A stretch of DNA of 64,000 nucleotides from Candidatus Krumholzibacteriia bacterium (GTDB lineage: Bacteria > Krumholzibacteriota > Krumholzibacteriia > LZORAL124-64-63): the NCBI GenBank assembly GCA_024763215.1, contig JANTFX010000005.1:4210-68209 (forward strand). Direction: 5' to 3'. A program made the translations under genes and the position numbers. This document shows positions 1 to 35,587 of this stretch, piece by piece; positions within the stretch are counted from its first letter, which is position 1; every line of letters begins with the position of its first letter. Under the pieces are notes generated by a model that was not told where the DNA came from, did not search any database, and was given only the letters and a program-made list of their open reading frames with translations.

Positions 1-435
1 TATTTCGTCTGGCTGCTGCTTGGGCTGTCGGGGCCGGCGTTGCTCGGCCTGCTGATCACCGGGAGCTGGTGGGGAGCCCTGGAAGGCTTCCTGTGGGGCG
101 GGCTGGGCCGCATCTTCCTGGTGCACCACGCGGTTTGGGGCGTCAACTCCCTGTGCCACATCTTCGGCAGCCGTCCCTTCGCCACCCGTGAACAGAGCCG
201 CAACCTCTTCTGGCTGGCGCTGCCGTCTTTGGGCGGCGCCTGGCACAACAACCACCACGCCTTCCCCCGCACCGCCGACAACCGCCTGCGATGGTGGCAG
301 TTCGATTTCTGTGGCCTGGTCGTGCGGCTGCTGGAGCGCGCCGGCCTGGCCCGGGATGTCCAGTACGCCGACGAGGCGGCATTCCGGGCGGCAGGAAAAA
401 ACAAGGACACCCCCGACATGGTCATGGAGGGTTGA
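1..435 (+). CDS. membrane fatty-acid desaturase, 5'-partial (C-terminal 144 aa in window)
   Basis: Frame-1 ORF running off the window start. Translation carries the third His box NNHHAFP typical of acyl-CoA/acyl-lipid desaturases. Clearly paralogous to the next gene. Confidence 0.7.
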   Translation, partial: YFVWLLLGLSGPALLGLLITGSWWGALEGFLWGGLGRIFLVHHAVWGVNSLCHIFGSRPFATREQSRNLFWLALPSLGGAWHNNHHAFPRTADNRLRWWQFDFCGLVVRLLERAGLARDVQYADEAAFRAAGKNKDTPDMVMEG

Positions 436-436
436 C

Positions 437-1414
437 ATGCTGAATCAGGAAAATGTCGCGGCCATGGGCAACGTGCAGGATGAAGCTCCCTACACCGTGG
501 CCGGACCCGTCGAGCACCGCAGACTGCGGATCATCGCCGGGCTGGTGGTGGTCGTGCCCCTGCTGGGAACCATCCTGGCGCTGTGGCTGGCGGTGACCCG
601 CGGGCTGGGGGCGGTGGAGATCTGGTCCTTCGGCGTCAGCTATGTCCTGACCATGATGGGGCTCACGGTGGGGTTCCACCGCCACTTCGCCCATCGCTCC
701 TTCCGGACCGGGACCGCCATGCGGGTGATCCTGGCCGCCCTGGGATCCATGGCGGGGCAGGGGCCGGTGATCTGGTGGGTCGCCACCCATCGCCGGCATC
801 ACCGTTTGAGCGACCAGGACGGGGATCCCCATTCCCCGCAGCTTGCCGAAGGCACGGGGATCGCCCGGGTGGTCAAGGGCCTCTGGCAGGGCCACATCGG
901 CTGGCTGTTCTCCGACCGCATCAGCAACTGGAGCCTGTTCGCCCGCGACATGATGAACGACCGCCTGGTCGTCAGGATGCACCGGCTTTATTTCCCGTTC
1001 TTCTTGCTGGGCCTGATCCTGCCCGGGGTGGTCGCCGGCCTGGTGACCGGATCCTGGTACGGAGCTTTCCTGGGTTTCCTGTGGGGCGGCCTGGTGCGGG
1101 TCTGCATCGTCGATCACGTGCTGTGGTGCGTGGGGTCGGTCTGCCACATGTTCGGTTTGCGCCCCTACCGCAAGCGCACCCGGGATCACAGCGCCAACAA
1201 CCTGGCGGTGGCCTTCCTCGGCTTCGGCGAGGGTCTGCAGAACAACCACCACGCCTTCCCCCGCGACGCCTTCCACGGCTTCCGCTGGTATGAGCCCGAT
1301 CTGGGCGCCCAGATGATCCGCCTGCTCAAGGGGCTGGGGCTGGTCTGGGACGTGGTCGCGACCCCCCACCAGGACCTGAAGCGGGCCGAGGACCGCCGCA
1401 CCGAGGCCGCCTGA
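437..1414 (+). CDS. membrane fatty-acid desaturase (acyl-CoA/acyl-lipid delta-9-type), tandem paralog
   Basis: ATG at 437, 1 nt after the upstream stop. His boxes HRHFAH, HRRHH and NNHHAFP, with hydrophobic transmembrane stretches. The longer ORF 188..1414 is an upstream in-frame extension that overlaps the previous gene. Confidence 0.8.
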   Translation: MLNQENVAAMGNVQDEAPYTVAGPVEHRRLRIIAGLVVVVPLLGTILALWLAVTRGLGAVEIWSFGVSYVLTMMGLTVGFHRHFAHRSFRTGTAMRVILAALGSMAGQGPVIWWVATHRRHHRLSDQDGDPHSPQLAEGTGIARVVKGLWQGHIGWLFSDRISNWSLFARDMMNDRLVVRMHRLYFPFFLLGLILPGVVAGLVTGSWYGAFLGFLWGGLVRVCIVDHVLWCVGSVCHMFGLRPYRKRTRDHSANNLAVAFLGFGEGLQNNHHAFPRDAFHGFRWYEPDLGAQMIRLLKGLGLVWDVVATPHQDLKRAEDRRTEAA

Positions 1415-1434
1415 AATTCTTTGCGCCCCAACCG

Positions 1435-1788
1435 ATGGGAGTTCATGACATGTTGGAAAAAGTACTGAATCTGCTGGGCCTCAAGCGCCGGAAAAAGGAG
1501 GTCGTCTTCGACAGCCAGCCGCGCACCGAAGCGGAAATCCATGCCGGGCTGGTGGCGGCGCTGGCGCAGCGGGCGGGCGTCGACCGCGCCGGGGTGGACC
1601 CCACACGGACCTTCGCCCAGCTGGGATTCGATTCCCTGCAGGCCATGAAGTTCACCGGGCAGCTGGAGAAGGATCTGGGCCTGGACCTGGATCCCACCCT
1701 GATGTGGGACCACCCCACGGTGGAACGCCTGACGGTCTTCCTGGCCGGGCAGATGGGGCTGGCCGGCGACAAGCGGTCCATCGCGTGA
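1435..1788 (+). CDS. acyl carrier protein (phosphopantetheine-binding)
   Basis: 117 aa with the Ser attachment motif LGFDSL, acidic overall. Sits immediately before the FAAL. Confidence 0.8.
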   Translation: MGVHDMLEKVLNLLGLKRRKKEVVFDSQPRTEAEIHAGLVAALAQRAGVDRAGVDPTRTFAQLGFDSLQAMKFTGQLEKDLGLDLDPTLMWDHPTVERLTVFLAGQMGLAGDKRSIA

Positions 1789-3557
1789 GGGGGGCAGCGG
1801 CGGCAGACGGCCTGCAGCAAGGGGCGAACGATCTGGGGGAGGTGTTGCGCCTGCGGGCGGCGGCCCATCCGGACCGCCGGGCCTATGCCTTTCTGCGCGA
1901 TGGTGTGAATGAGAGCGCAGCCCTGACCTACGGGCAGCTGGACGCGCAGGCGCGGCGGATCGCCGCGCACCTGCAACAGCGGTTCTCGCCGGGGGATCGC
2001 CTGGTCATGCTGTACCCGCCCGGCCTGGAATTCGCCGCGGCGTTCTTCGCCTGCCTCTATGCGGGCGTGGTCGCCGTGCCGGCCTACCCTCCCCGGCGCG
2101 GAAAGGCCGACAAGAGGCTTGCCTCCCTGGTACGCGATTGCCGGCCCGCCGGCTTCCTGACCGTCGCGGCTGCCGGGGCGGATCTGAAACCCCTGCTGGA
2201 TCCCCTGGGGGCGGCCGCCCCCCTGGTCGTGGCCACCGATGCGGTCGACGGCGTCGGAGCGGGGGATTTCACACCGGTGCCCATCGCTGCCGACGGCCTC
2301 GCCTTTCTGCAGTACACCTCCGGCAGCACCGCGGCGCCCAAGGGGGTCATGGTCACCCACGCCAACATGATGGCCAACGAGCTGGCCATCGCCGCGGCCA
2401 TGGAGCACGACTCCTCCCTGGTGGGCCTGGCCTGGCTGCCGGTCTTCCACGACATGGGGCTGCTGGGCAACATGCTGCAGCCGATCTTCGTCGGCGGCAG
2501 CAGCGCCTTGATCCCGCCCCTGACCTTCCTCAAGAACCCCCTGTGCTGGCCGGCGGCGGTCTCAAAGTACCGGGCCACATCCAGCGGCGGCCCCAACTTC
2601 GCCTTCGACCTGTGCGCCCGGATGGCAGGGGCCCAGGGGCTGCCCCCGGACCTGGACCTTTCCTGCTGGAGCGTCGCCTATGTGGGGGCCGAGCCGGTCC
2701 GGCCCGATACCCTGCGCCGGTTCGCAGCCTGCTTCAAGGGCACCGGTTTCCGGGACGAGGCCTTCTTCCCCTGCTATGGCATGGCCGAAGCCACCCTCAT
2801 CGTCACCGGGGGCCCCAAGGCCGCCCGGCCGGTGACGCCCCGCATCGGCACGCGGGCCCTGCTCGAAGGTCGCGGCGAGCCGCGCCGTTTGCCGGGACCG
2901 GGATCGCGCCGCATCACCGGCTGCGGAAAGGCCGTGCCCGCCCACGAGGTCCTGGTCGTGGATCCGGAAACCCGGGCCCCGTGCGCCGAAGGCGTCGTGG
3001 GGGAGATATGGGTCCGGGGGCCGAGCGTGGCGGCGGGCTATTTCCGCAACGCGGAGACCACCGCCGAGATCTTCGCCGCCGCAACCCGCGACGGCCGGGG
3101 GCCGTTCCTGCGTACCGGCGACCTGGGATTCCTGCGGGACGGCGAGTTTTTCATCACCGGGCGTCTGAAGGACATGCTGGTCATCCGCGGGGAGAACCAC
3201 TACCCCAACGACATAGAGATCACCGTCGAGAGCGCCCACGCCGGGATCCAGCCCGGGGGGTGCGCGGCGTTCGCCGTGGAGGCCGGCGGCGAGGAACGGC
3301 TGGTGGTGGCGGCGGAACTCTCGCGCGCCCTCTACAGCCGGTTGCGGGGCCAGGGCGATCCGGCCGCCGGGGTGCCCGTGGCGGAGCTGGGCGAGGCGGT
3401 CAAGGAGCGCGTCTCCGGCGAGCACGAGATCCCCGTTCACCAGCTGGTGCTGCTCAAACCCGGTGCGATCCCCCGCACCTCCAGCGGCAAGATCCGCCGT
3501 GGGGCCTGCCGCAGCCTGCACCAGGGGCGGAAGCTGGAATCCCTTGCCGTCATCTGA
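1785..3557 (+). CDS. fatty acyl-AMP ligase (FAAL), AMP-binding superfamily
   Basis: Motifs LQYTSGSTAAPKGVMVTHANMMAN, GDLGF and the C-terminal PRTSSGKIRR. The N-terminus ...LRLRAAAHPDRRAYAFL is typical of FAALs. GTG at 1785 overlaps the ACP stop by 4 nt, so the ORF 1704..3557 is an upstream extension. Confidence 0.8.
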   Translation: MRGAAAADGLQQGANDLGEVLRLRAAAHPDRRAYAFLRDGVNESAALTYGQLDAQARRIAAHLQQRFSPGDRLVMLYPPGLEFAAAFFACLYAGVVAVPAYPPRRGKADKRLASLVRDCRPAGFLTVAAAGADLKPLLDPLGAAAPLVVATDAVDGVGAGDFTPVPIAADGLAFLQYTSGSTAAPKGVMVTHANMMANELAIAAAMEHDSSLVGLAWLPVFHDMGLLGNMLQPIFVGGSSALIPPLTFLKNPLCWPAAVSKYRATSSGGPNFAFDLCARMAGAQGLPPDLDLSCWSVAYVGAEPVRPDTLRRFAACFKGTGFRDEAFFPCYGMAEATLIVTGGPKAARPVTPRIGTRALLEGRGEPRRLPGPGSRRITGCGKAVPAHEVLVVDPETRAPCAEGVVGEIWVRGPSVAAGYFRNAETTAEIFAAATRDGRGPFLRTGDLGFLRDGEFFITGRLKDMLVIRGENHYPNDIEITVESAHAGIQPGGCAAFAVEAGGEERLVVAAELSRALYSRLRGQGDPAAGVPVAELGEAVKERVSGEHEIPVHQLVLLKPGAIPRTSSGKIRRGACRSLHQGRKLESLAVI

Positions 3558-3564
3558 AGCCCTC

Positions 3565-4686
3565 ATGAACCCCACCGCCCGGGACAGCTACCACGTGCGC
3601 CGTTTCCGGACCGGCGACCGGCCCGCCATCATCGCCCTGCTGCGGCAGGTGTGGGGGGAGGACTTCGCCGCCCTGATGGACGAGCTGTGGGACTGGAAAT
3701 ACGACCGCAACCCGCACAACCCGCCCGGTGGCCACAACTCCATGATCCTGTGCCGGGGCGATGAGCCCGTGGGTTTTCTGGGCATGATGTCGGCCCGGCT
3801 CAAGGTGGGTGACCGGGTCGTGCCCATGGCCTGGGGCTCGGAGCTGGCGGTGCACCCGGAACACCGGGGCCAGGGGTACCGGGTCTTCGTCAACATCGGA
3901 AAGGATGCCGAGAAGCTCATTGCCGGCACCGCCCGCACACGCGAGCTGGCGGGGCTGCCGCTGGGGTTCGGCGCCTTCGACATCACGCGGATGATCAGCC
4001 ACAAGCTCATCCTGCGTCCGCGCCGTTTCCTGACCGCCAAGACCGGCAACGCGGTTCTGGGCGCGGTGGGCGCGCCGCTGGTTTCCCTGGCGGTCACCGC
4101 TGCCAGCCTGCGTGCACGCGGCTGGTCCGGGGCGAAGGACGATCTGGAGCCGGTGGGTGATTTCGGCCCCGCCTTCGACGACCTGTGGGACGAGGTGGCG
4201 CCCGGATACGCGGTGATCCCCGTGCGCGACCGCGCCTTTCTGCAGTGGCGTTTCCGTGCTTGCCCGCTGCGGCGGCACACCGTGCTGGCCGCCTATCGCG
4301 GGGGCAACCTGCGCGGGTATGCCGTGCTGCGCCGGGAGGACCGCGGCGGGTTGCGCCGGGCCTACGTGGTCGACATGCTGGCTGGCGCCGGGGACAGGCA
4401 GACCTGGGACCGGCTCCTGCGGGGGGCTGCAAGGTACGCCCGCGGTGAGGGCGCGGATATCCTGACCTTCACCACCGCCGCCGCCTGGGATCTGGGCGCG
4501 ACCTTGCGCCGGCACGGGTACCTGTTCCGTTCCCGCCGGGTCTGGATCACCGGCCACGGCGGGTGCCGCCCGGAGTACGAATCCCTGCGGGAGCACCTTG
4601 AACATGCGGCCTCGCTGGTGATGACCCGGGCCGATACGGACCTGGATTTCAACTACCGGCTGGAGGAGGGAACCGATGGGGATTGA
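3565..4686 (+). CDS. GNAT-superfamily acyltransferase, 374 aa with a two-domain architecture
   Basis: ATG at 3565, 8 nt after the FAAL stop. The N-terminal GNAT-like core reads ...AVHPEHRGQGYRVF. Placed in the lipid operon. Confidence 0.6.
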   Translation: MNPTARDSYHVRRFRTGDRPAIIALLRQVWGEDFAALMDELWDWKYDRNPHNPPGGHNSMILCRGDEPVGFLGMMSARLKVGDRVVPMAWGSELAVHPEHRGQGYRVFVNIGKDAEKLIAGTARTRELAGLPLGFGAFDITRMISHKLILRPRRFLTAKTGNAVLGAVGAPLVSLAVTAASLRARGWSGAKDDLEPVGDFGPAFDDLWDEVAPGYAVIPVRDRAFLQWRFRACPLRRHTVLAAYRGGNLRGYAVLRREDRGGLRRAYVVDMLAGAGDRQTWDRLLRGAARYARGEGADILTFTTAAAWDLGATLRRHGYLFRSRRVWITGHGGCRPEYESLREHLEHAASLVMTRADTDLDFNYRLEEGTDGD

Positions 4687-5557
4687 GCGCCGGCCGAGGC
4701 CGGTGGCCTTCGTGCATCTGCCCAAGGCGGCCGGGACCACCCTGCACGGGATCCTGATGCGCCAGTATCCGGCCGACCGCACCCTGATCCTGGACGTGCA
4801 ACGGCCCGGGTACCGGGAAACCCTGGATGCCATCACCGAGCGGCAGAAGGCCACGGCGCTCTGCCTGCGCGGGCACATGCCTTTCGGCCTGCACAGCATC
4901 ACCGGCCGCGAGTTCGCCTGCATCACCGTCCTGCGCGATCCGGTGCGGCGCTTCATCTCCAAGTACCGCAACCTGGCCCGGCGCCCGGAACGCGCCCTGG
5001 AGATGGGCTTCCCTCTGGAGCGGCTGGGCTCCCTCGAGGACTTCATCACCATGCAGGTCGAGCGCAACGCCATGAACTTCCAGACCCGGATGATCGCCGG
5101 CTGGGTGGACCTCGAGGCCCCGCTGTTCCCCTACGCGGAGCCCGTGCCTGACGAGGCCCTGGCGCGGGCCCAGGCCAACATCGAGCAATATTTCACGGTG
5201 GCCGGGCTGGTCGAGAAATTCGACGAGTCGGTTGCGCTCATGCAGCTTGCCCTGGGCTGGTCCCCGGTCCGCTATGCGCGGCGCAACGTGGCCCCGGGTG
5301 CCGGCTCCAGCCCCGGCCCGGGGGGCGGCGTGCAGGATCGCCTGAGCGAGAGGATCCGCAGCCTCAACCACCTGGACGTGCAGCTGGTCGCCTTCGCGAC
5401 CGCGCGCCTGGAGCACCAGATGCAGGCCGCGGGGGAGGAATTCACCCGCGCCCTGGCCGGCATCCGGCGCCGCAGCGGCATGCTCTCGCGTCTGCAGGGC
5501 CTGGCCCGGAGCATGGGGCTCGGGCGGATGGCCCCTCTGGCACGCAGGTTCCGCTGA
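4676..5557 (+). CDS. sulfotransferase-family protein (PAPS-dependent)
   Basis: The N-terminal PAPS-binding P-loop-like motif HLPKAAGTT matches the sulfotransferase 5'-PSB motif. Overlaps the GNAT gene by 11 nt. Confidence 0.7.
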   Translation: MGIERRPRPVAFVHLPKAAGTTLHGILMRQYPADRTLILDVQRPGYRETLDAITERQKATALCLRGHMPFGLHSITGREFACITVLRDPVRRFISKYRNLARRPERALEMGFPLERLGSLEDFITMQVERNAMNFQTRMIAGWVDLEAPLFPYAEPVPDEALARAQANIEQYFTVAGLVEKFDESVALMQLALGWSPVRYARRNVAPGAGSSPGPGGGVQDRLSERIRSLNHLDVQLVAFATARLEHQMQAAGEEFTRALAGIRRRSGMLSRLQGLARSMGLGRMAPLARRFR

Positions 5558-5674
5558 AGGACCTGACCCTCTCCCCGGATCAGAAACGCATGGCCCCCAC
5601 CGGGTTGGCACCAGGGGGACCGTATGCTAGACTGCGGCCTTCTCGCCCTGCGCATCTTTTCCCGGAGGCCCGTC

Positions 5675-7435
5675 ATGACACCTTCCAGCCTGCCGCTGCA
5701 ACCCTGGCCCCTGCGGATGCTCCTGCAGCGCGTCGACCACGAGTGGCGCACGCGTCGGCAGATCTTCAGCCTGGCCGGGAGGCGGTTCTTCCGGCCCGAT
5801 CCGGCGGTGGATGTGGGCTGGGAACTGGATGGGGTGCGCGCGGCCACCCCGGTGGGCCCGGCCGCCGGACCGCACACGCAGCTGGCCCAGAACATCGCCC
5901 TGGGTTGGCTGGCCGGGGCCCGCAGCTTCGAGCTGAAGACGGTGCAGGTGCTGGACGAGCTGGAGATCCCGCGGCCCTGCATCGACATGGAGACCGTGGG
6001 CTACAACGTGGAGTGGAGCCAGGAGCTGCCGTTGCCCCTCTCGCTGCGGGAGTACGTCAAGGCCTGGGTGCTGCTGGCCGTGCTGCGCCGCTGGGAACCG
6101 TTGCAGGAGGTGCTCGGAGAGCCCGGGGATCACTTCTTCGAACTCTCGGTGGGCTACGACCTGCCGGGCGTCCAATCGGAGGCCGTCGGCGCCCTGATCG
6201 CCGGTCTGCGGGATGCTCGCGTCATGATTGACGAGCTGCGCGCCGAGATCGGCGGCCCGTTCGCGCACCTGCGGGATGTCCCGATCCCGTCGCGGATCGT
6301 GCGCACCGCGACCATCAGCACCTTCCACGGGTGCCCGCCCGACCAGGTCGAGACCATCGTCCGGCACCTGATGACCGCCCACGGCCTGGATGTCACCGTG
6401 AAGCTGAACCCGACTCTGCTGGGCCTGACGAAGGTGCGGGAGATCCTGCACGACCGTTTGGGCTACCGGGACATCGCCCTTTCGCCCGAGGCCTTCGCGC
6501 AGGATATGCAGTTCGACCAGGCTCTGGAGATGATCGCACGGTTGCAGGAATTCGCCGGCCGCAGCGGGCGGCGTTTCGGCATCAAGCTGACCAACACCCT
6601 GGTGGTCGAGAACCGGCGCGGGGTCATGCCGGGCAAGCAGATGTATCTGAGCGGCCCGCCCCTGCACGTGCTGGCGGTCACGCTGCTGGACAGGCTGTGC
6701 GCGGCCTTGCCGGGCGTGCTGCGCCTGGGCCCGGCCACTGAGGCTCCCGTGCCGGTGGCCTTCAGCGCCGGCATCGACAAGGACAACCTGGTCGATGCGG
6801 TGGCCCTGGGCCTCGGTCCGGTGACCATCTGCAGCGACCTGCTGCGGCCCGGCGGCTACGGGCGCATGGCCCAGGGGCTGCGCAAGCTGGTGCGCCACCT
6901 GAAGGACAACTGCCTGGGCGATCTGGCCGCCCTGCGCGGGCAGGTCCACCGGCAGGCCCAGGCCGCAGGCCACCGCGACGCCGTCGCCGCCTACGCCGAC
7001 CGCTTGTCCGGGGCCGAGGGCGCCGACCGCTACGGCACGGCCGGAGGCTGGAAACCGCCCCGCCACCTCGACCATGACCTGCAGGTTTTCGATTGCGTGG
7101 CCTGCACCAACTGCGTGACCGTCTGCCCCAACAACGCGTTTTTCAGCGTGCCGACCCCGCCCGGCAGCGGCCTCGATGCGCGCGAGCAGTACTTCGTGCT
7201 GGCCGAGCTGTGCAACGATTGCGGCAACTGCACCACGTTCTGCCCCGAATCCGGATCGCCCCAGCGGATCAAGCCGAGGCTGTACACCCAGCCGGAGGTG
7301 TGGCGCACCAGGGGCCGGGAGGGTTTCCTGCTGAACCAGGGTGATCAGGGGGTGGAGATCCAGGGGGAGCCGGCCCTTGCCCGCCGCCTGGAGCAGATGC
7401 TGACCCCGGAGAACCTGCCCTGGCTCAGGGGCTGA
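5675..7435 (+). CDS. DHOD/DPD-family flavoprotein with a C-terminal 2x[4Fe-4S] ferredoxin domain (PreA-like)
   Basis: TIM-barrel motifs of the dihydroorotate/dihydropyrimidine dehydrogenase family: PVGPAAG, ELKTV, STFHGCP, DVTVKLNP and SAGIDKD...AVALGLGPVTICSDLL. Two Cys clusters, CVACTNCVTVCP and CNDCGNCTTFCP. GGAGG lies 5 nt upstream of the ATG at 5675. Confidence 0.65.
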   Translation: MTPSSLPLQPWPLRMLLQRVDHEWRTRRQIFSLAGRRFFRPDPAVDVGWELDGVRAATPVGPAAGPHTQLAQNIALGWLAGARSFELKTVQVLDELEIPRPCIDMETVGYNVEWSQELPLPLSLREYVKAWVLLAVLRRWEPLQEVLGEPGDHFFELSVGYDLPGVQSEAVGALIAGLRDARVMIDELRAEIGGPFAHLRDVPIPSRIVRTATISTFHGCPPDQVETIVRHLMTAHGLDVTVKLNPTLLGLTKVREILHDRLGYRDIALSPEAFAQDMQFDQALEMIARLQEFAGRSGRRFGIKLTNTLVVENRRGVMPGKQMYLSGPPLHVLAVTLLDRLCAALPGVLRLGPATEAPVPVAFSAGIDKDNLVDAVALGLGPVTICSDLLRPGGYGRMAQGLRKLVRHLKDNCLGDLAALRGQVHRQAQAAGHRDAVAAYADRLSGAEGADRYGTAGGWKPPRHLDHDLQVFDCVACTNCVTVCPNNAFFSVPTPPGSGLDAREQYFVLAELCNDCGNCTTFCPESGSPQRIKPRLYTQPEVWRTRGREGFLLNQGDQGVEIQGEPALARRLEQMLTPENLPWLRG

Positions 7436-7898
7436 GCAGGCGCTGCAGCTTCTCCAGACGGGTGCGGACGCCCGCCCGGGTGTAGGGGTCTTCCGGGTCG
7501 GCCGGCCGGCCCGGGGCCTCGAAATATGGCTTCTCCTGGTAGAGACGCCCCCAGTGGGCATCGGTTTCCCGCACCAGCTCGGACAGGGCCTCGTCGGTGC
7601 CGAGGACGCGCTCCAGGAAGTCACGGAGCAGGTCCCGGGGCGCGCCGAAATGTCGCGCCACCAGGGGCGGATTGCCGTCCAGGCGCTGCAGGATGATCGT
7701 GCGCAGGGCGCCCTCGGTGTCGGGCAACAGGTTCCGTAATAGCTCTTTGACCTGAAATATGGTTTGATCGTGGGCGGCGACGGGCGAGGCGCCCTTGAGG
7801 GCCCCGCCGGAAGCCCGCAGCAGGGCTTCGTTGGCGTCTACGGTGTGCCCGCGCAGGATTTCATGCTCCGGGGGCAGCTTGTCATCATCTTTGCTCAT
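7425..7898 (-). CDS. hypothetical protein (157 aa)
   Basis: Starts MSKDDDKLPPEHE... The composition is non-repetitive and well mixed, unlike the surrounding GC shadow ORFs. Converges on the previous gene and overlaps it by 11 nt. Confidence 0.45.
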   Translation of the reverse strand: MSKDDDKLPPEHEILRGHTVDANEALLRASGGALKGASPVAAHDQTIFQVKELLRNLLPDTEGALRTIILQRLDGNPPLVARHFGAPRDLLRDFLERVLGTDEALSELVRETDAHWGRLYQEKPYFEAPGRPADPEDPYTRAGVRTRLEKLQRLLSP

Positions 7899-8015
7899 GA
7901 CCTGACCGTAACAGAAGGAAAGCCCGCATTGAACCGGAATCCTGATCCAGGCCGGCCCGCGCATCTGGCCGGCGGCAAGCCGGCCGACCAGGGGCAGTTC
8001 CTGCTCGGGCGGCGT

Positions 8016-8678
8016 GTGCGCCTGCTGCGCGAGCTGGCGCCGGATACACGTGGGCATGTGGTGGATTTCGGCTGCGGCAACGGCGCCCAGACGGTTCTGC
8101 TGGCCGCGTTTTGCGACCGGGTCACCGGGGTGGACGTCGACCCGGTGTTCCTGGCGGATTTCCGGGCCCGGATCACCGCGGCCGGGTTGCAGGGCCAGGT
8201 CCGGGCCGAGGTCCTGGCCGACGGCCGCATCCCCCTGCCGGACGGCGGCGCGGACGTGGTGACCTCGTTCACCGTGCTGGAGCACGTGCCCGACGAGGCG
8301 GCGGCCCTGGCGGAGATGCGCCGCGTGCTACGCCCCGGGGGCCGGCTGGTCGTCAGCGTGCCCAACCGCTGGTGGCTGTTCGAAACCCACGGGGCCGACC
8401 TGCCGTATCTGCCATGGAACCGCGTGCCCCTGGTGAGCTGGTGGCCCAAGAGGCTACACGACCGCTGGGCGAGGGCGAGGATCTATCGCCGGCGGGAGAT
8501 CGTCGCCCTGGTGGAGGCCGCCGGTTTCACGGTGACCGGCACCGCGCGCATGACCGCCCCCATGGATATGATCCCCTGGCCGCCGTTGCGCAGGCTGGTG
8601 CGGGGTGTTTTCTTTGGGCGCGACCGCGCCCTCCTTCCTTTTCTGGCCACGGAGATCCTGGTCAGTGCCGAGAGGTGA
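8016..8678 (+). CDS. class I SAM-dependent methyltransferase
   Basis: Motif I VVDFGCGNG, then acidic motif II and RPGGRLVV. The start is uncertain. GTG at 8016 is chosen so the gene does not overlap the divergent gene. Alternative ATGs are at 7863 and 7764. Confidence 0.6.
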   Translation: MRLLRELAPDTRGHVVDFGCGNGAQTVLLAAFCDRVTGVDVDPVFLADFRARITAAGLQGQVRAEVLADGRIPLPDGGADVVTSFTVLEHVPDEAAALAEMRRVLRPGGRLVVSVPNRWWLFETHGADLPYLPWNRVPLVSWWPKRLHDRWARARIYRRREIVALVEAAGFTVTGTARMTAPMDMIPWPPLRRLVRGVFFGRDRALLPFLATEILVSAER

Positions 8679-8682
8679 TTCG

Positions 8683-10797
8683 ATGTCCAAGTATGCAAAG
8701 GCGATGCTGATCATGAGTCTGACCGTCGGGATGATCGCAGGTTGTTCGCGGGGGCCCAAGCCACCGGAAGCGGCCGTCAAACCCCATGAGATCGTGGCTC
8801 CGGCAGGCACCCGGGTCGATGACTACTACTGGCTCAACCAGCGCGACGACCCCGAGGTGCTGGCCTACCTCAACGCCGAGAACGCGTACCTGGACGAGGT
8901 CATGGCCCCGACCCGGGCGCTGCAGGACACCCTGCTGGCCGAGATGAAGGGCCGCATCAAGCAGGATGACGCCTCGGCGCCCTATTTCCTGAAGGGCTAC
9001 TACTACTACACGCGGTACGAAAAAGGCGGTGAGTATCCGCTGTACTGCCGGCGCCAGGGCAGCATGACCGCCCCCGAGCAGGTCATGCTCGACGGCAACG
9101 CCATGGGCAAGGACGAGGGCTATTTCGCCCTGCGTGGGGTGGAGGTCAGCCCCGATACGAAGCTGGTGGTCTACGGGGTCGATACCGTGGGGCGCCGGTT
9201 CTACGACCTGCACGTGCGCGACCTGACCACCGGCCGGGATCTGCCCGACGTGATCGCTCAGGTCACCGGCAACGTGACCTGGGCCATGGACAACCGGACC
9301 CTGTTCTACGCCCGGCAGGACCCCGAGACCCTGCGTTCGTACCAGATCCTGCGCCACGAGCTGGGCACAGACCCCGGCCAGGACGTTCTGGTGTACCAGG
9401 AGGACGACGACACCTTCACCTGCAGCGTCGACCGCACCAAATCCGACCGCTACCTGGTGATCGACTGCGAGCAGACCCTCAGCACCGAATCGCGCATCCT
9501 GGAGGCGGACAATCCCACCGGGAAGTTCCGGGTGTTCCAGCCGCGCACGCGGGATCTCGAGTATCACATCGACCACCAGGGCGACCGCTTTTTGATCCGC
9601 ACCAACCTGGACGCGGCCAACTTCCGGCTCATGGAGTGCCCGCTGGACCGCACGGATTTCGTGGCCTGGCACGAGGTGATCCCCCACCGGCAGGACGTGC
9701 TGCTGGAGGACTTCGATGTGTTCGCCGACTGGATCGCCCTGGAGGAGCGGTTCGGGGGCCTGACGCATATCCGGGTCAAGTCCGATGACGGGGCGCTGGA
9801 CAAGATCCTCGACTTCGACGACCCCACCTGGGCCGCCTGGATCGGCTACAACCCGCAGATGAAGACCGACGTCCTGCGCTACGGCTATTCGTCCCTGACC
9901 ACGCCCTACACCACCTACGACTACGATCTGGGCACCGGCCGGCGGACTCTCGTCAAGCAGCAGGAGGTTCTGGGCGGGTTCGATCCGGCGAACTACCAGT
10001 CCGAGTACCTGATGGTGCCTGCCCGGGACGGGGTGAAGGTGCCGGTCTCGCTGGTCTACCGCAAGGGCTTCCAGCCCGACGGCACCCACCCGTTGCTTCT
10101 GTACGGCTACGGCTCCTACGGCATCAGCATGAGCGCCCGCTTCAATTCCCAGGTGCTCAGCCTGCTCGACCGCGGCTTCGTCTACGCCATCGCCCACGTG
10201 CGCGGCGGCCAGGAGATGGGCCGCTGGTGGTACGAGGACGGCAAGCTGCTGAAGAAGAAGAACACCTTTTACGACTTCATCGACTGCGCCAGGTACCTGG
10301 CCGACCACAAGTACACCGCCACCGACCGCATGTTCGCCATGGGCGGGTCGGCCGGCGGCCTGCTCATGGGTGCGGTGGTGAACATGGCGCCGGACCTGTG
10401 GCGGGGCGTCATCGCCCACGTGCCGTTCGTGGACGTGGTCACCACCATGCTGGACGAGTCCATACCGCTGACGACCGGCGAGTTCGACGAGTGGGGCAAC
10501 CCCAAGGAGAAGGTCTACTACGACTACATGCTGAGCTACTCGCCGTACGACAACGTCACCCGGCAGGAATACCCGGCCATGCTGGTCACCACCGGCCTGC
10601 ACGACAGCCAGGTGCAGTACTTCGAACCCGCCAAGTGGGTGGCCAAGCTGCGCAAGCTGAAGAAGGGTGACAACATCCTGCTGCTGAAGATCAACATGGA
10701 AGCCGGCCACGGCGGCGCCTCGGGGCGCTTCCGGCGCCTGCAGGAGACGGCCCTGAGCTACGCGTTCATGCTGGATCAGCTGGGCATCGAACAGTAG
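8683..10797 (+). CDS. ptrB: oligopeptidase B / S9 prolyl-oligopeptidase-family serine peptidase, lipoprotein
   Basis: N-terminal lipobox LTVGMIAGC. DDYYWLNQRDDPEVLAYLNAENAY matches the PtrB propeller N-terminus. The catalytic region GGSAGGLLMG carries the GxSxGG serine motif. Confidence 0.8.
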   Translation: MSKYAKAMLIMSLTVGMIAGCSRGPKPPEAAVKPHEIVAPAGTRVDDYYWLNQRDDPEVLAYLNAENAYLDEVMAPTRALQDTLLAEMKGRIKQDDASAPYFLKGYYYYTRYEKGGEYPLYCRRQGSMTAPEQVMLDGNAMGKDEGYFALRGVEVSPDTKLVVYGVDTVGRRFYDLHVRDLTTGRDLPDVIAQVTGNVTWAMDNRTLFYARQDPETLRSYQILRHELGTDPGQDVLVYQEDDDTFTCSVDRTKSDRYLVIDCEQTLSTESRILEADNPTGKFRVFQPRTRDLEYHIDHQGDRFLIRTNLDAANFRLMECPLDRTDFVAWHEVIPHRQDVLLEDFDVFADWIALEERFGGLTHIRVKSDDGALDKILDFDDPTWAAWIGYNPQMKTDVLRYGYSSLTTPYTTYDYDLGTGRRTLVKQQEVLGGFDPANYQSEYLMVPARDGVKVPVSLVYRKGFQPDGTHPLLLYGYGSYGISMSARFNSQVLSLLDRGFVYAIAHVRGGQEMGRWWYEDGKLLKKKNTFYDFIDCARYLADHKYTATDRMFAMGGSAGGLLMGAVVNMAPDLWRGVIAHVPFVDVVTTMLDESIPLTTGEFDEWGNPKEKVYYDYMLSYSPYDNVTRQEYPAMLVTTGLHDSQVQYFEPAKWVAKLRKLKKGDNILLLKINMEAGHGGASGRFRRLQETALSYAFMLDQLGIEQ

Positions 10798-10843
10798 CCC
10801 ATAGCCGAGCCGCCTGCCGGCGGCCTGGTCTTCAAACCTGAGA

Positions 10844-10873
10844 GCACGGGCCGGAATAGGCCCGTGCTTTTTT
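10844..10873 (+). terminator. rho-independent terminator after ptrB
   Basis: A 9-bp GC stem gcacgggcc / ggcccgtgc with a 6-nt loop, followed by TTTTTT. Confidence 0.55.
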
Positions 10874-10940
10874 GTGGGGGCAGGAATGAGTTTTTAGAAT
10901 AATTTTTGTAAATAAAAAATATATCGTGTCGATAATCATA

Positions 10941-10968
10941 TGTTATAATAGATAAGCAATTATTGCTT
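10941..10968 (+). promoter_or_regulatory. extended -10 (TGtTATAAT) plus a perfect palindrome AAGCAAT-T-ATTGCTT inside an AT-rich island upstream of the S8 protease gene
   Basis: Positions 10880-10970 are about 80 % AT in a 67 % GC genome. tgttataat lies at 10941-10949. The 7-1-7 inverted repeat lies at 10954-10968, between the -10 element and the start codon. Confidence 0.35.
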
Positions 10969-11004
10969 CCAATCATGCAACCTGAAGCTGGACAAAAGGA
11001 TGTG

Positions 11005-14000
11005 ATGATGAAGGGATGGGCCGTGCGGGGGATCGTTTGTCTCGGTTTGGGATTGGTCATTTTTCCACTGGTTTGCCTTGCTGAACCCGTTGCCGGGACC
11101 ACCGAGGAGGCCGCCAACCGGGTCTGCATCCAGTTGACCCCTTTGGCCGCCGTGGACGCGAACAAGGCGCTGGCCGCCTCGCGGTCCCCGTCCAGCAGAA
11201 CCGGCATATCCTCCCTCGATGGGGTGACGTCAGCCATGGGGCTGAACCGCGCGCGCCGGATCTTCGATGTCTCCGCGGGCAAGTCCGCCAAGGACCGGTA
11301 TGGCCTGGACCGCTTCCTGGTGCTGGAATTTTCGGGTCCGGTGACCGATGCGGACCTTGCGAGCATCAAACGGGATCCCGCGGTGGCGGACGCCTGGCGG
11401 GATCATCGGGCGACCCCGGCCACAGTGCCCACCGATTCCCTGTACGCCGCCAACTGGGGCCACCACAACACGGGCCAGTTCGTGACCGACGCGGGGGATA
11501 CCGTCGGCACGCCGGGATTCGACGCCGGGGCTCCGGTGGCCTGGGACCAGGGCTACGGCGACCCTGCGGTGGTCGTGGCCCTGCTCGATACCGGTGTGGA
11601 TACCGGTCACCCGGACCTGCGCTTGACCTCGGGATACGACTTCGGTGACGACGACCAGGACCCCATGGATGATTGCGGCACCTCCTCCATGGGCCACGGC
11701 ACGGCCACCGCGGGTATCATCGGCGCCATGGCCAACGGCGTCGGCGCCGTGGGCGCGGCTCCCGGTTGCACCATCATGCCCATCAAGGTCATCCGGACCG
11801 GGGCCATCTCCGATGACATGAGCGCCGTGGCCGCGGGCATCCAGTACGCCGCCGACCAGGGGGCGGATATCGCCTGTCTGAATCTCGGGGTGCTCTCGGG
11901 CGCCTCGGATCCTGCCACCGACGCGGCCCTGCAATATGCCCACGACGCCGGCCTCGTGCTGATCTCGGCCACCCACAACCAGGACAACAACTGGATTTCC
12001 TATCCGGCGAACAACGCCCATGTCATCGCTGTCGGGGCCGCTTCTCCTTGCGGGGAGCGCAAGAGCCCGGCCAGTTGCGACGGCGAATCCTGGTGGGGAT
12101 CCAACTACGGATGGAACATCCAGGATGATCCCGGGGCGGTGGACCTGCTGGGGCCCACGATTCTGCCCACCACCGACATCACCGGACCGGCTGGTTACGA
12201 CGCCGGCGATTACACAGGCAGGTTCAACGGTACCTCCTGCGCCACGCCCTATGCCACCGGCGTGGCCGCCCTGGTCCTCTCGCAGAACCCCGGCTTCACC
12301 CCCGACATGGTCAGGTCGCGTCTGTGCGTCACGGCCACCGATGTGGTCAGCAGTGAAAGCGGGGTGGGGTGGGACCGCTACAGCGGCTACGGCCTGGTCA
12401 ACGCCGCCGGGGCGGTGGATCCCGCCTTGCCGTCGTTCCCGACAGCCCACTTCGCGGTGGACCAGACCTATGGATGCAAACCCTTCGTCGTGTCGTTCAT
12501 GGACCAGTCCTCCGGGGTCATCGATTCCTGGCTGTGGGACTTCGGGGACGGCGCGACCAGCACCGAGCAGAACCCCACCCACGCCTATTCCTACCGTGGC
12601 ATCTACCATCCGACCCTGACGGTGGCCAACGCGGGCGGCAGCGCCTCGTGGACCCTGCCCGATTCCATCGATGTCGGCAGCACTCCAACGCCCTACTGGT
12701 ACTTCAGCACCTCCAACGAGGGCACGGCGCCCCTGACCGTGGGGGTGCACAACGGCTCGTCGCCGGATCCGTTCACCTCGTCCTGGGATTTCGGGGACGG
12801 AAGTCCCGCCGACACCACCTTCGAGCCCACCCACACCTACACCCAGCCGGGGACCTACCAGGTGGTCCTGACCGTCAGCAACGAACGCTGCGGCTCGGCC
12901 GCGTCCCACGCCAAGACGGTCACCGTGTCCGCGCCACCCCCTCCGGGCGCGTCGTTCACCGCGGATGTGACCTCGGGCTGCGCCCCGCTGGCGGTGGCCT
13001 TCACCGATTCCATGGGCACCGACGCCGTGGCCTGGTGGTGGGAATTCGGCGACGGGAGCCCGGCCGATTCGACCCGCAGCCCCACGCACATCTACGCCGC
13101 TGGCGGGGTGTACTCGGTGAGCCTGACCGTCCGGGACGCTTATGGGCAGACCACAACCTTCACCCGCGCCGATTATCTCGCGGTGGATCAGGCGCCCGCA
13201 GCAGGGTTCGCGGCCGCCCCGACCAGCGGCGATTTCCCTCTGGCGGTGGCCTTCACCGACTCCTCCGCCGGCACGGTGGTGTCACGCCGGTGGGATTTCG
13301 GCGACGGCAGTCCGGTCGACACCACCGTCGCGCCCATCCATGTGTACACCCAGGCCGGGGCCTATTCCGTCCGCCTTGTGGTCAGCGGCGCCTGCGGAAC
13401 CGACACCCTGCTTGTTCCCGGCCTGGTCAACGTTTCCACCCCGGCGCCCCCCGTGGCGGCCTTCGGGGCGAGCCCTGCGTTCGGATGCGCCCCGCTGACG
13501 GTGGCCTTCAGCGATTCGTCCACCGGCGCGGTGACCTCCTGGCTGTGGGATTTCGGCGACGGCAGCCCCGCCGACACCACCCGGAATCCCATGCATACCT
13601 ATCTTACCGAGGGGTCGTTTACCGTGATCCTGACGGTGACCGGTCCCGGCGGTTCGGACACGCTGACGGTTCCGGACATGATCGGTACCACGGGTCTGCA
13701 CGCGGATTTCACCGGCTTCGTGCTGCCCGAGGACCCGCGCCAGCAGCCCTACACCCCGCCCATCGGCTGTGCGCCACTGATGGTGGGCTTCGCCGACTCC
13801 ACCGCCGGTCCGGTCATGGGTTGGCTGTGGGACTTCGGGGACGGCAGCCCCGCCGACACCACCCAAAATCCCCTGCACATCTACGGCCAGCCCGGCCTGT
13901 ACGATGTGACCCTGATCGCCACCGGGCCCTGCGACGCCGACACCCTGACGCGGGCGCAGTACGTCAACGTTGTGCCGCCGACGCCCATCCACGCGGATTT

Positions 14001-14526
14001 CAGCGCCACCCCCACGGTGGGGCCGGGTCCCCTGGCCGTGGCCTTCCATGACAGCAGCACCGGGTTCGAGGGCATGTACCACCTGTGGGACTTCGGGGAC
14101 GGTTCGCCTCCGGATACAACGGCCAACCCGGTTCATATCTATGACGGCGAACCCGGCAGCTACACCGTGACCCTGGTGGTGTTCGCGCCCTGCAGCACCG
14201 ACACCCTGACCCGGGTGGATTACATCACGATCATGGATCCCAGCGGGGTGGGGGATACCCCCGCGCGGTTCGCCCTGGACCGGGCGTATCCCAATCCGTT
14301 CAACCCCACCACGACCCTTTCGTTCGCCCTGCCCACGGGCCGGCACGCGACGCTGGAGATCTACGACGTCTCGGGGCGCAGGGTGGCGACCCTGGTGGAC
14401 GCGGACTTTCCGGCGGGCCGCCATAAGGTGGTCTGGCAGGCCGGGGCCGAGGCCTCGGGGGTCTACTTTGCGCGCTTGCGGGCAGGCCGTGACCAGGCGG
14501 TGGCCAGGCTGGTCCTGTTGAAGTAG
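11005..14526 (+). CDS. subtilisin-like S8 serine protease with 7 PKD domains and a T9SS C-terminal sorting domain
   Basis: AAGGA is followed by ATGATG at 11005, and the N-terminus is a signal peptide. The catalytic triad contexts are DTGVD, HGTATAG and GTSCATPYATG. Seven repeats of ...W.WDFGDGSPADTT.NP.H.Y... follow. The C-terminus is ...PNPFNPTTTLSF...GVYFARLRAG... Confidence 0.8.
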   Translation: MMKGWAVRGIVCLGLGLVIFPLVCLAEPVAGTTEEAANRVCIQLTPLAAVDANKALAASRSPSSRTGISSLDGVTSAMGLNRARRIFDVSAGKSAKDRYGLDRFLVLEFSGPVTDADLASIKRDPAVADAWRDHRATPATVPTDSLYAANWGHHNTGQFVTDAGDTVGTPGFDAGAPVAWDQGYGDPAVVVALLDTGVDTGHPDLRLTSGYDFGDDDQDPMDDCGTSSMGHGTATAGIIGAMANGVGAVGAAPGCTIMPIKVIRTGAISDDMSAVAAGIQYAADQGADIACLNLGVLSGASDPATDAALQYAHDAGLVLISATHNQDNNWISYPANNAHVIAVGAASPCGERKSPASCDGESWWGSNYGWNIQDDPGAVDLLGPTILPTTDITGPAGYDAGDYTGRFNGTSCATPYATGVAALVLSQNPGFTPDMVRSRLCVTATDVVSSESGVGWDRYSGYGLVNAAGAVDPALPSFPTAHFAVDQTYGCKPFVVSFMDQSSGVIDSWLWDFGDGATSTEQNPTHAYSYRGIYHPTLTVANAGGSASWTLPDSIDVGSTPTPYWYFSTSNEGTAPLTVGVHNGSSPDPFTSSWDFGDGSPADTTFEPTHTYTQPGTYQVVLTVSNERCGSAASHAKTVTVSAPPPPGASFTADVTSGCAPLAVAFTDSMGTDAVAWWWEFGDGSPADSTRSPTHIYAAGGVYSVSLTVRDAYGQTTTFTRADYLAVDQAPAAGFAAAPTSGDFPLAVAFTDSSAGTVVSRRWDFGDGSPVDTTVAPIHVYTQAGAYSVRLVVSGACGTDTLLVPGLVNVSTPAPPVAAFGASPAFGCAPLTVAFSDSSTGAVTSWLWDFGDGSPADTTRNPMHTYLTEGSFTVILTVTGPGGSDTLTVPDMIGTTGLHADFTGFVLPEDPRQQPYTPPIGCAPLMVGFADSTAGPVMGWLWDFGDGSPADTTQNPLHIYGQPGLYDVTLIATGPCDADTLTRAQYVNVVPPTPIHADFSATPTVGPGPLAVAFHDSSTGFEGMYHLWDFGDGSPPDTTANPVHIYDGEPGSYTVTLVVFAPCSTDTLTRVDYITIMDPSGVGDTPARFALDRAYPNPFNPTTTLSFALPTGRHATLEIYDVSGRRVATLVDADFPAGRHKVVWQAGAEASGVYFARLRAGRDQAVARLVLLK
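12440..14220 (+). repeat. seven tandem PKD-domain-encoding repeats (about 255 nt each) inside the protease gene
   Basis: Recurrent WDFGDGSPADTT / APLAVAFTDSS peptide blocks in the translation. This is a coding repeat. Confidence 0.5.
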
Positions 14527-14555
14527 TCCGCGCCGGGTCGATGCTCAGGTGGTGA

Positions 14556-15668: not shown

Positions 15669-15685
15669 GGCGGTTCCACCAGGGT

Positions 15686-19048: not shown

Positions 19049-19111
19049 GGGCCGCAGGGTCCTTCCGTCTGGCTTCCTTCCGGGGTTTGCAGCTATTATG
19101 GTTGGGAACCA

Positions 19112-31719: not shown

Positions 31720-31761
31720 GGTCTACTCCTTGACTGGGACCGGGCCGCGGCCCGCCCGGGT

Positions 31762-32946: not shown

Positions 32947-32965
32947 CTTGCTCTCCTTCTGCCCG

Positions 32966-35338
<2,373 letters not shown>

Positions 35339-35410
35339 GCAATCCGCCTTTCGTGGGTGGGCCCGCACGGATGCCTGCGGGCCGGACCAGGGTTCCGTCT
35401 GGATGTGTAA

Positions 35411-35457
35411 AATGAATGCCTATTCATTATCCTAAACAGTATCGTCCGGGATGTCAA
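35411..35457 (-). promoter_or_regulatory. beta-oxidation operon promoter with an overlapping FadR(TetR)-type operator
   Basis: On the minus strand: TTGACA, 17 nt, TAGGAT, then immediately the palindrome AATGAATAGGCATTCATT at 35411-35428. The palindrome resembles Bacillus-type TetR-family FadR (YsiA) operator boxes of the TGAATGA...TCATTCA form. Confidence 0.45.
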
Positions 35458-35587
35458 CCCATTTAGATTTATCCGAAAATTTCATTGTTTTGCTCAATAA
35501 ATGGCAATATTATCCGATAAGAAGGTTCCGTGCCGCCGCCGCAGCTTTGCGGGCGAGCGATGATCGGTAGTGAATGGGTGTTCATAT

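Follow-up and report, generated by a model that had tools for sequence, protein, structure and literature searches.

The opening of a 64,000-nucleotide stretch of DNA from a Candidatus Krumholzibacteriia bacterium (GenBank assembly GCA_024763215.1, contig JANTFX010000005.1, positions 4,210 to 68,209; hereafter the window) raises the question of what is made by an enzyme set that comprises two membrane desaturases, one acyl carrier protein (ACP), a fatty acyl-AMP ligase (FAAL), a tandem-GNAT acyltransferase and a sulfotransferase, all encoded by a six-gene operon at window positions 1–5557. We propose that the FAAL would adenylate a free long-chain fatty acid and load it onto the dedicated ACP, as expected from homology, and that the two desaturases, of the SCD family, would then act on the ACP-bound chain to introduce double and possibly triple bonds, as homology and gene context suggest. 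The tandem-GNAT protein would free the chain by moving it from the ACP thioester to an amine, a step to which domain fusions and gene adjacency point. With gene context as the sole guide, this amine would most probably sit on an amino sugar that has lost its N-acetyl group and is part of a glycan or glycolipid precursor. Judging by homology and fold, the heparan-sulfate-O-sulfotransferase-like enzyme would sulfate a sugar hydroxyl of the same molecule from 3′-phosphoadenosine-5′-phosphosulfate (PAPS). The predicted product of the six genes is an N-(unsaturated acyl), O-sulfated amino-sugar lipoglycan or glycolipid, a type of molecule for which we know of no earlier description. On sequence evidence the passage of the chain from FAAL to ACP, through desaturation to release by the GNAT protein, is a likely one, and the full model, with its glycan acceptor, is in our judgement evenly balanced between being right and being wrong.

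A conserved six-gene operon

An earlier, sequence-only reading of this DNA described seven co-directional open reading frames (ORFs), all of which we find on the forward strand of window 1–7435 where it had placed them, and its family calls (desaturases, ACP, FAAL, GNAT, sulfotransferase and Fe-S protein) are borne out by profile searches. Third-position GC ranges from 0.85 to 0.92 in all seven, a bias that is a signal of coding, and we therefore read them as real genes. The first, desaturase 1 or the ‘A-type’ desaturase (1–435), is cut by the window start and retains only its C-terminal 144 aa; a 1-nt gap separates it from desaturase 2, the ‘B-type’ enzyme (437–1414, 325 aa), which belongs to the SCD1 family of membrane di-iron desaturases. 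The ACP gene (1435–1788, 117 aa) follows after 20 nt, or after 35 nt if the protein starts at the ATG at 1450 and is 112 aa long, as is suggested by the 112 aa of its homologues. Its stop is overlapped by the GTG start of the FAAL gene (1785–3557, 590 aa) in a 4-nt GTGA, and 7 nt further on lies the gene for the tandem-GNAT protein (3565–4686, 373 aa), proposed to carry the acyl chain from ACP to amine. The start of the PAPS-type sulfotransferase gene (4676–5557, 293 aa) in turn overlaps the GNAT stop by 11 nt. A seventh gene (5624–7435) stands 66 nt beyond the sulfotransferase, or 117 nt when counted from the ATG at 5675, where its homologues begin. The contention that no junction exceeds 11 nt thus holds for the 1-nt gap, the 4-nt overlap, the 7-nt gap and the 11-nt overlap and fails for the spacers before the ACP and before the seventh gene, and the seven-gene operon of that reading shrinks to six genes, the seventh being a neighbour by synteny.

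The same six genes, in the order desaturase, desaturase, ACP, FAAL, GNAT, sulfotransferase, are collinear and uninterrupted in six further loci (L002, L003, L004, L005, L006 and L020), in which the GNAT protein is 53–72% identical to that of the window. Loss of synteny among homologues had been set in advance as a result that would count against the operon, and the proposal passes this test. The FAAL and GNAT genes even overlap by 1 nt in L020. The order is unbroken in all seven loci, the window included, despite rearranged DNA past the sulfotransferase, where L003 and L004 have an opposite-strand gene of 401 aa, L005, L006 and L020 have an M3 peptidase and other genes, and L002 has quite different ones. 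Close relatives of the GNAT protein are very rare, with about nine among 5.8 billion clustered proteins, and derive from the metagenome-assembled genome (MAG) ‘bacterium CG_4_9’, a Candidatus Krumholzibacteriia MAG and unclassified MAGs. A metagenome scan yielded only two near-duplicates of known loci together with distant members.

A lipid-tail module of the alkyne cassette kind

The first four genes recall biosynthetic cassettes for alkyne and polyyne fatty acids. The three-gene alkyne cassette is defined by a co-encoded FAAL, fatty-acid desaturase and ACP, and the seven-gene polyyne cassette adds two further desaturases (one of them delta-12-like, making three in all), a thioesterase and a rubredoxin (PMC8406139). 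In such cassettes the FAAL loads the dedicated ACP and a thioesterase frees the finished acid (PMC9828172), with desaturation taking place on the ACP-bound acyl chain (PMC9828172, PMC8406139). The window contains the complete jamABC-type combination in one co-directional block, namely a FAAL (PF00501), PF00487 in two genes and an ACP (PF00550). It does not contain a seven-gene (cay/pgn) polyyne cassette, as there are only two desaturases, both JamB-like, and neither an alpha/beta-hydrolase nor a rubredoxin is found in window 1–12000 or in L002–L006.

Desaturase 1 matches PF00487 and NF049918, has full-length orthologues of 313–316 aa in L003 and L005, and carries the third His box HNNHH, as does desaturase A of Streptomyces sp. 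Mg1. Desaturase 2 matches PF00487 at 1e-17 and the SCD1-type desaturase structure 4zyo at 5e-28; its His boxes are HRHFAH, HRRHH and QNNHH, the last being common to desaturase B of Streptomyces sp. Mg1. Neighbour joining of 17 sequences over 307 columns, with 200 bootstraps, places the desaturase-1 group with Mg1 desaturase A in 125 replicates and the desaturase-2 group with Mg1 desaturase B in 146, and in none of the 200 do the two window-type groups pair up. We take desaturases 1 and 2 to be an old A/B pair common to bacterial alkyne and polyyne cassettes. At the Mg1 locus the polyyne cassette is complete (FAAL, two desaturases, ACP, third desaturase, hydrolase, rubredoxin and P450), and its order desA-desB-ACP is identical to that of the window. 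This locus was one of seven best-match loci inspected after a search of annotated plasmids with the desaturase 2 protein, in which the matches are labelled acyl-CoA desaturase and are 36–47% identical. An ACP adjoins the match in six of these seven, and in five of the six a FAAL is annotated as well (Burkholderia gladioli, Streptomyces sp. Mg1, Polaromonas, Thalassospira and Pseudonocardia); the Ralstonia locus has the ACP and no FAAL in the stretch viewed.

The ACP (PF00550 at 1.9e-16, with a GFDSL serine motif) is nearest to ACP domains of the polyketide synthase (PKS) type, and is 29–40% identical to the ACPs of alkyne/polyyne-type cassettes; for the FAAL the corresponding range is 36–45%. 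The best NCBIfam matches of the latter are all FAALs (PRK05850 at 2e-126, FadD32, FadD21, FadD28 and MbtM, the last at 2.5e-65), the top FAAL models scoring 1e-126 to 1e-89 against 1e-44 or worse for acyl-CoA ligases. Its best match in the PDB, 7r7f at 1e-152, spans residues 18–577 with no large gaps and is followed by 3kxw and FadD23/32/28, so that the enzyme lies nearer to FAALs than to acyl-CoA ligases and matches solved FAALs from end to end.

Proposed chain release by a tandem-GNAT acyltransferase

How would the chain leave the ACP? The operon encodes no thioesterase, and we propose that release falls to the tandem-GNAT protein. Only the N-terminal ~105 of its 373 aa match Pfam (generic GNAT models, residues 11–105), no NCBIfam model matches it, and a sequence search of the PDB returned no matches. 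It does not match PF13444 either, and so is not a member of the N-acyl amino-acid synthase/OlsB family. Its predicted fold is nearest to Eis-like tandem GNATs, MshD and N-myristoyltransferase, the last being the top Foldseek match, at 10–17% identity. The protein does not belong to the Eis-type aminoglycoside N-acetyltransferases, a class marked by sequence homology to Eis together with a C-terminal SCP-like domain. Grouping of this protein with aminoglycoside or peptide acetyltransferases had been named as a result that would speak against the lipid pathway; a likeness of fold at such low identity, with no PDB match by sequence, does not amount to such a grouping.

A family profile built on the window GNAT protein was searched against 1.84 billion representatives and gathered 16,847 members at E<=1e-3 and 1,289 at E<=1e-30, so the wider tandem-GNAT family is large and only the branch of the window is rare. 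Among the best 150 representatives are nine fusions, and in all nine the tandem-GNAT part comes last and directly after a PP-binding domain. Two of these (P0116 and P0131) have the architecture FAAL-ACP-(KS-AT-KR-ACP)x2-GNAT, two (P0143 and P0170) are lines of PKS and non-ribosomal peptide synthetase (NRPS) modules ending in C-A-PCP-GNAT, and the others read A-PCP-GNAT (P0114), KR-ACP-GNAT (P0110 and P0149) and PCP-GNAT (P0105 and P0145). Distant members that stand free have a small carrier protein and an AMP-binding, adenylating enzyme as their neighbours in L012 and L015, and in L032 an AMP-binding fragment lies just upstream. We accordingly define here a carrier-protein-dependent tandem-GNAT off-loading family, of which the window protein, as the seed of the profile, is a member.

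The position behind a carrier domain in nine of nine fusions supports acyl-ACP as the donor of the GNAT protein. The indirect evidence for a carrier protein as the source of the family's acyl donor is good, and in the window this source would be the FAAL-loaded ACP; the 7-nt spacing between FAAL and GNAT genes and the lack of a thioesterase fit this assignment. The sequence-only reading, in which the FAAL hands its acid to the ACP and the GNAT protein is the only off-loading enzyme, fits these architectures. A literature search on C-terminal GNAT chain-release domains found nothing relevant, and the tandem-GNAT part that ends PKS, NRPS and FAAL-PKS megasynthases looks like a type of chain-release domain for which we found no description. 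The proteins that share the fold differ in donor: Eis-like acetyltransferases, MshD, N-myristoyltransferase and FemX use CoA thioesters or aminoacyl-tRNA, whereas members of the window family are found fused behind carrier domains.

These proteins are also set apart from the window family by a conserved acidic motif of the latter, (F/W)xT.ADSD.D, which lies 0–5 residues from the C-terminus in ~126 of the 150 members. In the window protein (window 4630–4660) and its two closest relatives the motif is followed by a tail of 9–12 residues. N-myristoyltransferase uses its own C-terminal carboxylate as catalytic base. Since this enzyme is the top Foldseek match, it is conceivable, by analogy, that the ADSD.D motif could play a similar role. 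The family also occurs in a cluster of a different kind, at L012 2974–12862 of an Acidobacteriota MAG, which has two copies and encodes a Lys/Orn-monooxygenase-like flavoprotein, a MetY-like PLP enzyme, a MetA-like homoserine acyltransferase, a GNAT protein, the 100-aa carrier-like protein, the AMP-binding enzyme, the second GNAT protein and a NodS-like methyltransferase; its product may be an amino-acid-derived amide.

The six genes might instead be two unrelated modules, one in which desaturases, ACP and FAAL remodel or scavenge fatty acids for a different acceptor and one in which the GNAT protein acetylates a polysaccharide from acetyl-CoA and the sulfotransferase sulfates it, with no hand-off between them. 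Such a division would account for GNAT-sulfotransferase pairs that occur apart from FAAL, ACP and desaturases (within 10 kb in L016/L017, and in L019), and for a 41% identical GNAT relative in L007 that has neither neighbour. It does not sit well with the close FAAL-GNAT junctions of the window and L020, with a gene order that holds in seven loci despite rearrangement past the sulfotransferase, with a FAAL/ACP module that has no other release enzyme, or with the fusions behind carrier domains, to which a FAAL-started line at the L016-equivalent locus (L037, below) belongs. We consider two independent modules improbable.

The sulfotransferase and the nature of the acceptor

The preferred pathway ends in sulfation. 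The sulfotransferase passes the PF03567 cut-off (24 against 22 bits) and falls just below that of PF06990. By its 5′-PSB lysine, its 3′-PB arginine and serine, and its fold it is assigned to the PAPS-dependent Sulfotransfer_2/heparan-sulfate O-sulfotransferase type, and its structural model is nearest to heparan-sulfate, that is glycosaminoglycan, O-sulfotransferases. Heparan-sulfate 6-O- and 2-O-sulfotransferases (Sulfotransfer_2; Gal-3-O-sulfotransferase family) are thus its closest known counterparts, the window enzyme being instead bacterial, soluble and 293 aa long, with Pfam scores at the family thresholds.

Sulfation can also serve as leaving-group chemistry, as in the ST-TE part of olefin synthase and CurM, where a chain hydroxyl is activated for elimination to a hydrocarbon or alkene. 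A FAAL and an ACP followed by a sulfotransferase is indeed the outline of the cyanobacterial olefin synthase (PMC11837247). The window, however, offers no ketosynthase or ketoreductase to make a beta-hydroxyl and no thioesterase, and the sulfotransferase travels with the GNAT protein in polysaccharide loci. The enzyme does not belong to the ST-TE class, and on the distance in fold and the three missing activities we reject a route of this type, which has in our view scarcely any chance of being correct.

Which molecule, then, would receive the acyl chain and the sulfate? In L016/L017 the GNAT-sulfotransferase pair (39% and 50% identity) lies within a polysaccharide locus that also encodes Poly_export, a GH42-like protein, MurJ, a polysaccharide deacetylase, Wzy_C, GT2 and a Sulfotransfer_1/3 enzyme, and L019, on a short contig, has the sulfotransferase-proximal half of a locus of this type. 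The six-gene block itself abuts orthologues of L016-type genes in L002 (GH42-like, 44%; MurJ, 40%; a second sulfotransferase, ST3, 48%; GT2, 35%). L037 is a counterpart of L016, with orf597, TSP3, Wzy_C (48%), the deacetylase (54%) and also Poly_export in common, and at 8001–20258 a 4085-aa FAAL-PKS-GNAT fusion replaces the free GNAT protein and is followed by two sulfotransferases of the same family. Of 13 distinct loci that encode distant GNAT relatives, nine have a PF01522 (NodB-family) deacetylase beside the GNAT gene, and NodS-like methyltransferases are found near it in L009, L011, L012 and L033. The presence of GNAT and sulfotransferase in Wzy-type loci and the adjoining deacetylases therefore favour a scheme in which a glycan would be deacetylated, re-acylated by the GNAT protein and O-sulfated.

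The model first put forward in the sequence-only reading has the GNAT protein acylate a small amine or amino acid (such as serine, ethanolamine or ornithine), whose head group is then sulfated to give a free sulfated N-acyl membrane lipid or signal. It draws on the same FAAL, ACP and GNAT evidence as the glycan model and has the merit of simplicity, being a self-contained pathway of six genes at loci where the window and the stretches of L003–L006 (up to 10 kb) hold no glycan genes. In L018, moreover, relatives of the sulfotransferase (36%) lie beside a giant FAAL-PKS with only one multi-glycosyltransferase gene, at the locus edge, and no evident polysaccharide-assembly genes. Against it stand the dissimilarity of the GNAT protein to N-acyl amino-acid synthases and OlsB, the GNAT-sulfotransferase pairs of L016/L017 and L019, the fused form in L037 and the junction with such genes in L002, the sugar de-N-acetylases paired with distant relatives, and the modelled likeness of the sulfotransferase to glycosaminoglycan O-sulfotransferases. 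An acceptor of the amino-sugar or glycan type is what the surroundings of the GNAT-sulfotransferase pair indicate. We do not regard a simple N-acyl amine or amino-acid lipid as the best interpretation of the locus, and judge it rather unlikely.

In a further variant the GNAT protein would act like the bacterial ceramide synthase bCerS (CCNA_01212) and N-acylate a long-chain base that is later sulfated, as part of a sphingolipid-like route. In favour of such a route, sphingolipid loci of Caulobacter likewise include genes for an ACP and an acyl-ACP synthetase. A second parallel is that bCerS is a soluble acyltransferase that adds the second chain (PMC11087976). No serine palmitoyltransferase (spt) or CerR-like reductase is encoded in the window or in any related locus, and we regard this route as very improbable indeed.

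Several observations weigh against the glycan pathway that we prefer. In the lipid-tail module the bootstrap support for the desaturase pairing is moderate (62% and 73%) and comes from a simple neighbour-joining tree, and there is no rubredoxin-like electron donor, third desaturase or thioesterase. The clear six-gene loci seem to be of one lineage (Krumholzibacteriota-like MAGs with shared flanks), and some of their synteny may accordingly be inherited. With a pLDDT of 75 the GNAT model is moderately good, and it does not reveal an acyl pocket. On the side of the acceptor, neither the window nor the L003–L006 stretches (up to 10 kb each side of the GNAT gene) contain a deacetylase, glycosyltransferase, flippase or PAPS-synthesis gene, which would place the acceptor pathway in another part of the genome. 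No L016-type polysaccharide genes are found in the 64-kb window at E<1e-6. The link to glycans rests on relatives that are 39% identical (L016) or 23–33% identical (distant loci and the L037 fusion), and acceptor specificity can shift over such distances.

Two further loci contain relatives of these enzymes. At L018 1–9938 two tandem sulfotransferases (36–37% identical to the window enzyme) adjoin a 5599-aa FAAL-ACP-PKS, with a sulfatase nearby. The Fibrobacteraceae MAG CAZJGK01 has two copies of the close GNAT branch (L007 2346–3422 and L019 2–1848), of which that in L019 is paired with a sulfotransferase and that in L007 stands alone after a large FG-GAP-like membrane protein.

Relation to known systems

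Alkyne (JamABC-type) and polyyne (cay/pgn) cassettes likewise bring together a FAAL, a dedicated ACP and SCD-family membrane desaturases, and each window desaturase has its partner in one of the two JamB-like desaturases of the Mg1 polyyne cassette. Unlike the polyyne cassette, the window has no third (delta-12-like) desaturase, thioesterase or rubredoxin, and release would fall to the tandem-GNAT protein, with a sulfotransferase to follow; its Krumholzibacteriota-like host also lies outside the phyla listed in the polyyne survey (PMC8406139). In its logic the pathway corresponds step for step to the lipidation module mbt-2 of mycobactin, with MbtM as FAAL, MbtL as ACP, MbtN as acyl-ACP dehydrogenase and MbtK as GNAT protein: the FAAL charges its dedicated ACP, desaturation occurs on that carrier and the GNAT-fold enzyme passes the chain to an amine. 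Part of this comparison reportedly goes back to work of Krithika and colleagues from 2006. Another part rests on a further source (PMC11633376). The sequence-only reading held that the enzyme set resembles no characterised pathway, which is too strong, given that the desaturase pair, ACP and FAAL are homologous to an alkyne/polyyne cassette (PMC8406139, PMC9828172) and that the logic of mbt-2 is alike.

Mycobacterial sulfolipid-1 (FadD23 FAAL, Pks2, PapA1/2 and Stf0) also joins a FAAL-started lipid to a sulfated sugar, and FadD23 is matched by the window FAAL in the PDB at 1e-97. In the synthesis of Nod factors (NodB, NodF/E, NodA, NodH), and in LpxC/LpxD chemistry, a sugar loses its N-acetyl group, the freed amine receives a new chain from a special unsaturated acyl-ACP and the glycan is O-sulfated from PAPS. 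The proposed pathway would follow the same logic with enzymes of which none is orthologous: the tandem GNAT would replace the NodA or LpxD fold, and the desaturases the NodE ketosynthase. The window is not a Nod-factor locus, as it contains no NodA, NodB or NodC, a NodB-family deacetylase being present only in L016, L037 and the 9 of 13 distant loci.

What is familiar in the window thus matches known systems part by part, the tail module being of the alkyne-type cassette kind, the overall logic that of mbt-2 and the glycan logic that of Nod factors. We could find no literature precedent for release by a tandem GNAT, for its association with a sulfotransferase of the glycosaminoglycan type or for the connection to polysaccharide loci of the Wzy type; searches for the enzyme combination, for Krumholzibacteriota with sulfotransferase, and for tandem GNAT with ACP and deacetylase found nothing relevant. 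A broader and more speculative proposal is that tandem GNATs form an undescribed class of thiotemplated (FAAL/PKS/NRPS) release enzymes that graft carrier-bound acyl chains onto de-N-acetylated sugars of Wzy polysaccharides, and that the window version puts an alkynyl or polyunsaturated tail on a sulfated, glycosaminoglycan-like glycan, giving a new sulfated lipoglycan with a ‘clickable’ lipid. We offer this tentatively, as an idea that may well prove wrong.

If our model is correct, cassettes of FAAL, ACP and desaturases, so far associated with free alkyne and polyyne fatty acids, can discharge what they make through an amide-forming tandem GNAT and not a thioesterase. A large family that lacks annotation (at least 1,289 sequence clusters at E<=1e-30), and whose members also end PKS and NRPS lines, would gain a role open to testing. 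The model would further point to lipid-tailed, sulfated polysaccharides, which have not been reported from bacteria, in poorly known phyla of the FCB group. Bio-orthogonal labelling would profit from an enzyme able to transfer chains that are bound to an ACP, and possibly tagged with an alkyne, to amines.

The seventh gene and flanking DNA

The gene that follows the sulfotransferase encodes a 603-aa protein on the forward strand, with its likely true start at the ATG at 5675. Residues 25–429 match TIGR03315 (YgfK) at 1.9e-124, below the cut-off of that model (416 against 835 bits), over profile positions 4–399 of 1012, and are followed by two 4Fe-4S motifs, which make up a 2x[4Fe-4S] domain. 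The protein does not have the full-length YgfK architecture, as the C-terminal flavin/NAD part is missing. It can be described as a ‘half YgfK’, with the N-terminal TIM-barrel-like part of the putative selenate reductase subunit joined to 2x[4Fe-4S].

This is the protein that the sequence-only reading, as a DHOD/DPD-like Fe-S enzyme, had included in the operon. Homologues that are 71–74% identical exist in L003–L006, yet there they lie 1.3–4.7 kb from the sulfotransferase, parted from it by inserted genes that are unrelated and in some cases on the opposite strand, and no such gene is present in L002. Where it occurs, the YgfK-like gene is always joined to a minus-strand 161-aa gene, a methyltransferase and an S9 peptidase, as in the window. 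The sole sigma-70-like promoter match in window 1–8800 (5605–5633) falls between the sulfotransferase and the seventh gene; the intergenic RNA between these two folds no better than shuffled sequences (z 0.12), and no terminator-like site is found there. Synteny and the promoter-like site together exclude the seventh gene from the operon.

Beyond it, a 286-aa ORF on the minus strand (7425–8285) and the ORF of a 304-aa methyltransferase on the plus strand (7764–8678) overlap by ~520 nt. To judge by the genes called in L003 (161 aa and 248 aa), the actual genes are shorter, at ~7425–7916 on the minus strand and with a methyltransferase start near 7930, which leaves no overlap. The 161-aa protein belongs to no Pfam family, and its gene converges with that of the Fe-S protein, their ends overlapping by 11 nt.

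For the DNA upstream of the block, exact look-ups returned no match with desaturase 2, the ACP or protein P0001, and with the sulfotransferase only L001, a contig of 6 kb; we turned instead to the homologous loci L003–L006. A thiolase gene and a HAD hydrolase gene lie directly upstream of the six genes in all four, an HMG-CoA-synthase-like gene is also present in L004–L006, and a DUF35/ChsH2-type gene is called in L003 and L006 (L003 37–2295; L004 2414–5736; L005 and L006 2243–5636). Thiolase, HMG-CoA synthase and DUF35 protein form an archaeal-type set, and the upstream genes look like housekeeping genes. The HAD gene lies 170–250 nt before desaturase 1 and is a candidate member of the lipid operon.

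Further into the window, a minus-strand beta-oxidation set (29929–36181) encodes an acyl-CoA dehydrogenase, a thiolase-like protein and a FadB-like 3-hydroxyacyl-CoA dehydrogenase/enoyl-CoA hydratase, with a TetR-like gene divergent beside it; it has no evident link to the operon. A subtilase of 1187 aa encoded at 10963–14526 contains seven PKD domains as well as a weak C-terminal sorting domain of type IX secretion, which fits an organism of the FCB group.

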